A stretch of DNA of 64,000 nucleotides from contig OX597833.1 in assembly GCA_951406725.2 (NCBI GenBank), forward strand, positions 26,784,001 through 26,848,000. The letters are read 5' to 3'. This DNA comes from Octopus vulgaris. Lineage: Eukaryota. The notes under the pieces were generated by a model. It saw nothing but the letters and a program-made list of their open reading frames with translations, did not search any database and was not told the origin of the DNA. Made by a program: the position numbers and the translations under genes. This document shows positions 59,723 through 61,022 of this stretch, one piece after another (within the stretch, counting starts at the first letter, position 1; each line of letters begins with the position of its first letter).

Positions 59723-59766
<44 letters not shown>

Positions 59767-60068
59767 AATTAAGGACTGAACACGAAAAAGTGGACAGTCG
59801 GATTCTTTCTTTAATATGCTAGACCACTGGTTCTAATTGATAAATATCAATTTTTACCCTAAATTTAATGTTATATAAATATTTGTTCTCTAACCGATAA
59901 ATTAACTGCTGCTAACTATTAGCTGCAGGCTAGTTTTCTCGGGTCTCATCGCGCCAAAATTAGAGACATTTGAAATATATATTTCAAATGTAATAGGCCG
60001 TACTCCATGCACGCGATATTTCGGTATCGTGTTGGCATTTAGTACAGCAAATTACATTTTATATGGGA

Positions 60069-60134
60069 CCATGCTGATGATGGCTGCACTTTTCCTTGCG
60101 GAAAATAACAGCCGAAACTGAATTTAGTACATGG
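60069..60134 (+). ncRNA. Type I hammerhead ribozyme (copy 1)
   Basis: CCATG-CTGATGA-t-GGCTG[cacTTTTCCttgcGGAAAAtaa]CAGCC-GAA-ACTG-aatt-TAGT-A-CATGG. All core nucleotides and three stems are present; predicted cleavage after GUA (60129). Confidence 0.9.
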
Positions 60135-60580
60135 GTAAATATTTATTTCGTATATTTTTCACTTGTTTATTGTTTTGGTTTTGTGTTGAGTTTGATCTGA
60201 GAACATAGACTTTTTGTGGAGAATGACGATTTGACGTCTATATCTAGCATGTTGACTGTCCACTTTTTCGTGTTCAGTCCTTAATTGGTATATATAAATA
60301 TTTTAATCTTCGGATTCTTTCTTTAATATGCTAGACCACTGGTTCTAATTGATAAATATCAATTTTTACCCTAAATTTAATGTTATATAAATATTTGTTC
60401 TCTAACCGATAAATTAACTGCTGCTAACTATTAGCTGCAGGCTAGTTTTCTCGGGTCTCATCGCGCCAAAATTAGAGACATTTGAAATATATATTTCAAA
60501 TGTAATAGGCCGTACTCCATGCACGCGATATTTCGGTATCGTGTTGGCATTTAGTACAGCAAATTACATTTTATATGGGA

Positions 60581-60646
60581 CCATGCTGATGATGGCTGCA
60601 CTTTTCCTTGCGGAAAATAACAGCCGAAACTGAATTTAGTACATGG
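60581..60646 (+). ncRNA. Type I hammerhead ribozyme (copy 2)
   Basis: Same sequence as 60069-60134, offset 512; predicted cleavage after 60641. Confidence 0.9.
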
Positions 60647-61022
60647 GTAAATATTTATTTCGTATATTTTTCACTTGTTTATTGTTTTGGTTTTGTGTTG
60701 AGTTTGATCTGAGAACATAGACTTTTTGTGGAGAATGACGATTTGACGTCTATATCTAGCATGTTGACTGTCCACTTTTTCGTGTTCAGTCCTTAATTGG
60801 TATATATAAATATTTTAATCTTCGGATTCTTTCTTTAATATGCTAGACCACTGGTTCTAATTGATAAATATCAATTTTTACCCTAAATTTAATGTTATAT
60901 ATATATATATATAAAATAGAAATATTAAAATTTCTAAGTCTCTCTAAAGGAAACTACGGCAGCGGTACTGGATATTAATAGTTATGGCCAAGCTAATATG
61001 GCAGTCCAGAAATATAGGACGA

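Follow-up and report, generated by a model that had tools for sequence, protein, structure and literature searches.

The tandem array described here, located in a 64-kb window (the whole stretch of 64,000 nucleotides of Octopus vulgaris DNA that was analysed), is with high probability an insertion of a non-LTR retrozyme, for the copying of which an autonomous Penelope-like element (PLE) likely supplied the protein in trans. The first-pass annotation of this DNA had proposed a retrozyme mobilised by a Penelope-type RT/GIY-YIG protein, and that proposal is strengthened by the anatomy of the insertions and by the occurrence of the same anatomy in the autonomous PLEs of this genome. As the class is already known, the octopus family likely adds one more member to the animal non-LTR retrozymes; a literature search returned no report of this family or of cephalopod retrozymes, and Repbase, Dfam or published supplements may hold it.

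The array comprises 2.15 identical copies of a 512-bp unit on the + strand (unit 1 at 59798..60309, unit 2 at 60310..60821), the identity at a lag of 512 being exact across 59798-60389 (592 nt), from which it follows that the array extends to 60901. The unit is non-coding with a GC content of 33%: when looped, its longest stop-free frame is 71 codons and ATG-started frames reach at most 30, and the unit contains no RT/GIY-YIG ORF of its own of the kind that defines an autonomous PLE. Tandem Repeats Finder, which has a period limit of 500, misses the array. A 43-nt piece at 59757-59799 is the exact reverse complement of 60254-60296, and as 8 of these nucleotides are TA and could equally belong to the flank, the inverted short arm is given as 35 nt (59765..59799, - strand), its 3′ end being the fixed site A discussed below. 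On the + strand, the end-A motif (60782..60800) terminates at site A, a putative RT start site at 60800 (also at 60288), and a tail of approximately 94 nt (60801..60895) leads to site B at 60895 (also at ~60383), the end of the long arm and a second putative RT start site. (TA)n target DNA borders the insertion on the left (59736..59764, AT x14.5) and on the right (60896..60913), and a target-site duplication is unreadable in such a microsatellite. At this locus the A arm measures 35 nt and the B arm spans 2.15 units, and their 5′ ends are 56 nt apart. The identical units, the lack of an ORF, the inverted piece and the (TA)n on both sides had all been described from the sequence beforehand and are upheld here, while the length of the unit, described there as above that of the typical animal retrozyme, is not unusual, as vertebrate retrozyme consensus lengths are given as 51-972 bp (bioRxiv 10.64898/2026.07.22.740005). 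Other features of the window include a MITE-like hairpin element at 61023-61214 (86-nt arms that are 92% complementary, a 20-nt spacer, then TA repeats), a Pif1 helicase fragment at 57403-57825 on the - strand (Pfam Pif1_2B_dom, E 3.5e-4, below cut-off), which is probably a Helitron remnant, and a microsatellite-rich tandem duplication of approximately 2.2 kb at ~26750-28730 and 28950-30900, recognised by arrays that recur and frames that are identical.

Within the window, a generic search for type I hammerheads on either strand returned exactly two matches, both on the + strand of the array, in agreement with the initial description of one ribozyme per unit. These lie at 60069..60134 and 60581..60646, with cores at 60074 and 60586 and predicted cuts after 60129 and 60641, and would delimit a predicted 512-nt monomer (60130..60641). 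In the first copy, stem I is formed by 60069-73/60130-34, the core occupies 60074-80, stem II 60082-86/60109-13, the GAAA 60114-17 and stem III 60117-20/60125-28, all on the + strand; the stems as listed originally stand, to which are now added an upper 6-bp helix of stem II and, at 60081, an additional U that separates core position 9 from stem II, neither of which had been noted. Directly upstream is a long imperfect hairpin (59986..60059, + strand), which serves as the inversion junction in several other insertions (L055, L177, L181). The minus strand of the window yielded no type I hammerhead in the generic scan, other ribozyme types being covered through Rfam only. The Rfam comparison that the first-pass annotation had put forward as a check matched no hammerhead family, neither at the gathering score across the whole window nor at E up to 10 across 59700-60950, and because Rfam does not score the motif, the hammerhead call rests on core, stems and covariation. 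Folding, also put forward as a check, gave a divided outcome in that the isolated motif adopts the hammerhead at minimum energy and the centroid is without stem III. Predicted pairing depended on context: it was ~0.8 for stem I and ~0.5 for stem III in an RNA ending at 60140, 0.58 and 0.3 in the 512-nt circle, and 0.01 (unpaired) and 0.12 (weak) in the full precursor at equilibrium, which makes cleavage during transcription plausible on these predictions, though perhaps incomplete. The suggestion that stem III could fold in the monomer is retained as marginal, on the values predicted for the nascent RNA and the full precursor.

A search of the octopus genome itself (2.8 Gb, 227 contigs), in which 40 of 1,447 candidates were scored, returned full-unit matches that are 92-100% identical, and exact matching of the end-A 19-mer and of a strict core pattern gave 1,855 and 112 genome matches, respectively, as compared to 0 for each reversed control. 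As the first 100 end-A matches fall in 50 loci, extrapolation gives approximately 900 loci genome-wide. Contigs from runs under two other organism codes cover 29 of 30 and 27 of 30 unit bins, and a third other-organism run covers 21 of 30 with two contigs, indicating that the family also occurs outside this assembly. With regard to expression, four runs presumed to derive from RNA yielded contigs alone on the stretch, in which strand and RNA termini are unreadable. Monomers, dimers and multimers are all represented among the loci; the majority of copies comprise less than one unit, and L053, L179 and L180 carry 4-5 tandem units, while both arms are multi-unit at L179 (2.5+4.2 units), L178 (1.5+3.7) and L054 (2.2+2.7). 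The two complete units of the window are identical, and unit differences elsewhere in the family are mostly singletons. Four subfamilies were distinguished, namely A (512 bp, that of the window), C (505-507 bp, 92% identical to A), B (504-506 bp, 89%) and D (~72%). Taken together, the sequences point to a young, dispersed non-coding tandem family of near-identical copies. Of the three outcomes for which a genome-wide search had been recommended at the outset, multiple copies and stem covariation (see below) were obtained, and similarity to autonomous PLEs was found at none of the loci examined. One insertion is present twice (L014 and L015, C6:126.38-126.39 Mb), 7.6 kb apart with identical junctions and left flank, and represents a segmental duplication or an assembly haplotype.

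Comparison of the subfamilies indicates that the hammerhead is conserved with compensatory changes in stems I, II and III. A stem I pair changes from C-G to U-A in subfamily D, a lower stem II pair from C-G to U-A in a branch of subfamily A and an upper stem II pair from U-A to A-U in subfamily B, and a stem III pair is A-U, G-U or G-C across subfamilies. In a hand-picked set of 19 of the 50 distinct motifs, which were collected by core pattern and compared against the structure of the window copy, 9 of 20 pairs change on both sides and 94.5% of 379 cells are paired as compared to 31-41% in slid controls, these counts being inflated by related sequences, with four subfamily-D rows one column out of register in stem II. 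Core and stems are kept in the genome copies, one of the points on which the first-pass annotation had let its reading stand or fall. The core is intact in 4 of 4 subfamily-D copies that were found without using the ribozyme (by 3′-end pattern or adjacency), and the raw sequences of subfamily B also retain an intact motif; core divergence was 6 of 2,019 versus 4.8% elsewhere, a contrast inflated because the core itself served to retrieve many of the loci. Two of the traits given for PLE hammerheads (PMC4209133) are shared: an additional base between positions 9 and 10.1 of the core is present here, and helix III is palindromic in subfamilies B and D. Loop III is shortest in subfamilies B and D, at 2 nt, as compared to 3 nt in C and 4 nt in A, such that the older forms likely need a dimer and the form in the window may do without one. 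Other full-size type I hammerheads with a long helix II and different stems adjoin Neptune copies at L065, L066 and L103, and these are probably further retrozyme families or PLE ends.

The arms of family insertions end at two fixed places, A and B, which lie ~94 nt apart and are each followed in the unit by a TA-rich run, site A being the commoner 3′ end. In a set of 88 loci, from which 6 arm rows of adjacent older fragments were dropped and which is biased to long or core-bearing copies, 50 are two-armed and head to head, of which 43 pair A with B and 7 have one odd end, and 38 are single-armed (31 A, 7 B). Inverted insertions with A+A or B+B ends were found at 0 of the 50 two-armed loci. 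The 50 loci behind the first 100 end-A matches, 3 of which are shared with the larger set and all of which carry the A motif by selection, gave 38 A+B, 4 B+odd, 7 single A and 1 single B, and 3 of the 4 B+odd loci look like A ends over-extended by the aligner. At least 5 TA units are present on both flanks at 69 of 88 loci and on at least one flank at 88 of 88, over a tested span that takes in 12 nt of the aligned end. Between loci, the length of the inverted arm ranges from ~40 to more than 1,900 nt, and the arm is absent in 38 of 88. The 5′ ends of the two arms fall within 10 nt of each other, modulo the unit, at 22 of 42 loci, as compared to 5.0 expected and a maximum of 14 in 20,000 permutations, and these junctions are often at self-complementary spots. 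Neither an accumulation of 5′ ends at the predicted cut (within 6 nt of it lie 5 of 145 arm ends, as compared to ~3.7 expected, and within 8 nt 2 of 90) nor a cluster at unit positions 139-150, considered as a start site, was retained, the latter being without prominence in the full histogram. At L037, L044, L126 and L136, a third, less common 3′ end lies ~60 nt beyond site A, a distance close to the 57-nt tail of the 1,311-codon PLE family described below, though these few cases carry little weight. Partial tandems that are 5′-truncated, head-to-head arms in (TA)n targets and two fixed 3′ ends with a tail on one arm only are what a non-autonomous PLE displays, the tail of ~94 nt being longer than the 30-40 nt described for PLEs (PMC8557442).

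Intact autonomous PLE frames of two sizes are present in the genome, one of 781 codons (RT with a C-terminal GIY-YIG) and one of 1,311-1,312 codons. The 781-codon family carries the cysteine linker that marks Neptune elements, its clade label being given by that motif alone, and a second Neptune-like family is also present; the 1,311-1,312-codon family is related in RT and endonuclease, and a Pfam search with it returned no match. All three autonomous families insert in (TA)n, possess two fixed ends and combine one of each in their inverted copies: 3 of 3 inverted Neptune-like copies follow this rule of one arm per end with tails of 31-38 nt, and in the 1,311-codon family, where the tail is 57 nt, 9 of 10 copies do so, the remaining one being interrupted by Ns. 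The search for a partner scored 150 of 6,136 and 150 of 3,317 candidates, in which two families dominate, and the loci compared were 30 of 148 GIY-YIG matches with 18 wider regions, together with 16 regions of the 1,311-codon family. No autonomous family among the loci examined has similarity to the unit or a 94-nt tail: the best matches between unit and PLE are short AT-rich stretches or neighbouring insertions, and tblastn over the family loci returned only short endonuclease fragments at 3 loci, none of which is continuous with the unit. The window itself holds a PLE RT fragment at 10079-10660 (- strand) that is 71-74% identical to the very young 1,311-1,312-codon family, in which an asparagine-rich insert and, in the 3′ end, a variant hammerhead-like motif were observed. 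At L088, positions 1245-3590 and 4527-4710 correspond to a young two-ORF Neptune-like PLE with many intact 781-codon frames, the 3′ end of which carries repeats with many TGATGACGTC and ATTGG boxes, as well as an apparent minimal hammerhead whose core bases are altered.

For purified PLE protein, nicking of both strands of AT-rich DNA, a predicted dimer and reverse transcription from two internal sites that bound the genomic tail have been reported (PMC11167929). Given this published two-site internal priming and the same end rule in the autonomous PLEs, mobilisation of the retrozyme by a PLE is well supported, and we infer that sites A and B are two internal RT start sites. Multi-unit loci would be read through, and the transcripts bound by a PLE RT/GIY-YIG dimer that nicks both strands of a (TA)n run. 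Each target end would then prime one cDNA inside the RNA, one at site A and the other at site B, and the two cDNAs would be joined head to head, often at a self-complementary spot, thereby giving an inverted A arm and B arm. At the window locus, the A cDNA would have stopped after 35 nt and the B cDNA run for 2.15 units, on a template that continues through intact hammerhead junctions, be it a 512-nt circle, formed through self-cleavage and ligation and copied by rolling circle, or an uncleaved multimer. Self-priming has been proposed earlier (PMC3846280); simple fold-back from the B cDNA as the sole route does not accord with L185, where the A arm is more than one unit longer at the same junction, and annealing of two cDNAs at a palindrome is the better reading of this locus.

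The nature of the template was approached through 90 arms, those of one locus not being independent, of which 33 extend beyond the first cleavage site (11 past at least two such sites and 5 past at least three), 55 fall short of it and 2 end no more than 8 nt from the cut. A linear cleaved monomer would cap arms at ~160 or 255 nt, and the exact 512-nt linear RNA that the first-pass annotation had put forward for mobilisation is consequently rejected as the usual template, as so many arms cross intact sites and no ends pile up there; that such an RNA would be released is nevertheless a sound prediction. This leaves a circle or an uncleaved multimer, with a slight lean to the circle based on the conservation of the ribozyme, the persistence of long arrays despite truncation and the circles of other animal retrozymes. 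Variant sharing was tried as a discriminator and rejected: arms or units within a locus differ by a median of 0.9% versus 6.4% between loci, the nearest other locus is as close, and of 83 pairs of arms from a single locus only 41 are reciprocally closest, such that the data show one subfamily per insertion, not one molecule. Since 55 of the 90 arms stop before the hammerhead, the stop rate is not constant, unlike that of a pure rolling circle, which suggests that shorter linear templates are also used.

In its strong form, to which we give somewhat less than an even chance, a covalently closed 512-nt circle would be the real template, and the PLE dimer would prime internally at two start sites 94 nt apart and roll round, requiring no RNA 3′ end. 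If so, multi-unit inverted arrays would arise in a single step, rolling-circle retrotransposition by a Penelope enzyme would be recorded directly in the genome by this family, and the function of the hammerhead would be to make an endless template. Held here with the same reserve is a variant of our explanation in which the hammerhead is a passenger with respect to mobility, no circle serves as a template and only uncleaved linear read-through is copied, with cleavage that is rare or merely trims transcripts. In an anole PLE, hammerhead mutants are reported to be without effect on insertion in vitro and no RNA ends were mapped to the hammerhead cut site (PMC11167929), and 8 of 9 Xenopus retrozyme dimers are reported without cleavage in vitro (bioRxiv 10.64898/2026.07.22.740005). 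The predicted disruption of stem I in the long precursor, the 55 arms without a complete cleavage junction and the existence of source loci with 4-5 tandem units (L053, L179, L180) all accord with a passenger role. A passenger would not, however, account readily for core and stems that are kept with compensatory changes down to ~72% identity, and read-through alone combined with heavy 5′ truncation would be expected to shorten arrays at each round, yet arms that cross three or more sites persist; moreover, the differences in the long arms of L178 and L180 are few and mostly private to a unit, and RNA circles have been described for the retrozymes of coral, mussel and axolotl (PMC7229834).

Origin of the array as a minisatellite, in which a solo pLTR or single copy was expanded locally by unequal crossover after insertion, is a scenario raised in the retrozyme preprint (bioRxiv 10.64898/2026.07.22.740005) and is improbable here. 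It would suit L053, where some variants are common to non-adjacent units among the five, and the fact that most copies hold less than one unit, but would not predict arrays bounded by exact A and B ends in (TA)n, multi-unit sequence in both arms at L179, L178 and L054, or the identical window units and the mostly singleton differences elsewhere. The circular-RNA replicon also entertained in the first-pass annotation, taken in the viroid sense of RNA-to-RNA replication with genomic copies as by-products, is very improbable: the unit is circle-sized with a ribozyme and its predicted monomer is far more structured than shuffles (z = -6.76, 100 shuffles), but the minus strand has no hammerhead, the fold is branched at 33% GC, and the ~900 dispersed 5′-truncated copies with retrotransposon ends account for all observations. 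Equally remote are a TA-targeting DNA transposon (MITE) with the 35-nt piece as its TIR and a tandem duplication, which 59765-60288 resembles between TA dinucleotides at this locus alone, and an assembly duplication, for which it may be said that none of the contigs compared spans the whole array, as an inverted arm so variable in length, and absent at 38 loci, is unlike any TIR element, and multi-unit arrays with private differences exist at many loci.

The value of the family lies in providing a test system for a known class. Animal retrozymes have been tied to PLEs by co-occurrence and pLTR homology (PMC7229834; bioRxiv 10.64898/2026.07.22.740005), and in Xenopus 24 of 57 families matched Repbase elements, nearly all of them PLEs (bioRxiv 10.64898/2026.07.22.740005); in the octopus, this link is read from the ends at which the insertions of a young family terminate, in a genome that also holds intact candidate enzymes. 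A dimer that primes at two sites would be expected to leave just such a pattern in vivo, namely the strict pairing of A with B in the retrozyme and of the corresponding ends in three autonomous families. With a 512-nt template and mapped start sites, any role of PLE hammerheads in mobility and any use of circles as templates can be put directly to the test.

The octopus unit shares with plant LTR retrozymes a ribozyme-delimited unit and a predicted structured circle. Hammerhead viroids are likewise ribozyme-delimited structured circles with a type III hammerhead. The octopus unit differs from both in its type I hammerhead and low GC, and in being without LTR, PBS, PPT, 4-bp duplication or minus-strand ribozyme. 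As compared to the autonomous PLEs of this genome, which have minimal or variant hammerheads, the retrozyme has a full one with a 4-bp helix III and a long two-part helix II. From the accounts of EN+ PLEs and non-autonomous derivatives such as MRC1 (PMC8557442; PMC3846280; PMC11167929), it shares 5′ truncation, partial tandems, a head-to-head inverted arm, a tail that is optional and confined to one end, palindromes where the arms are inverted, (TA)n targets and a hammerhead, and differs in having no ORF and in the length of its tail. The closest likeness is to the animal non-LTR retrozymes as described in PMC7229834 and bioRxiv 10.64898/2026.07.22.740005, from which the octopus family departs in that pLTR homology to an autonomous PLE was not found, the link to PLEs running through the insertion ends instead, and in that circles and cleavage are here predicted. 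With these it has in common non-coding, low-GC tandem units of a length within the published range, a complete type I hammerhead in each of two consecutive units that is maintained with covariation, a longest frame of just 71 codons, insertion ends that are the A and B sites and not LTRs, with neither PBS nor PPT apparent, and a dispersed multicopy organisation as monomers, dimers and multimers that co-occur with PLEs.
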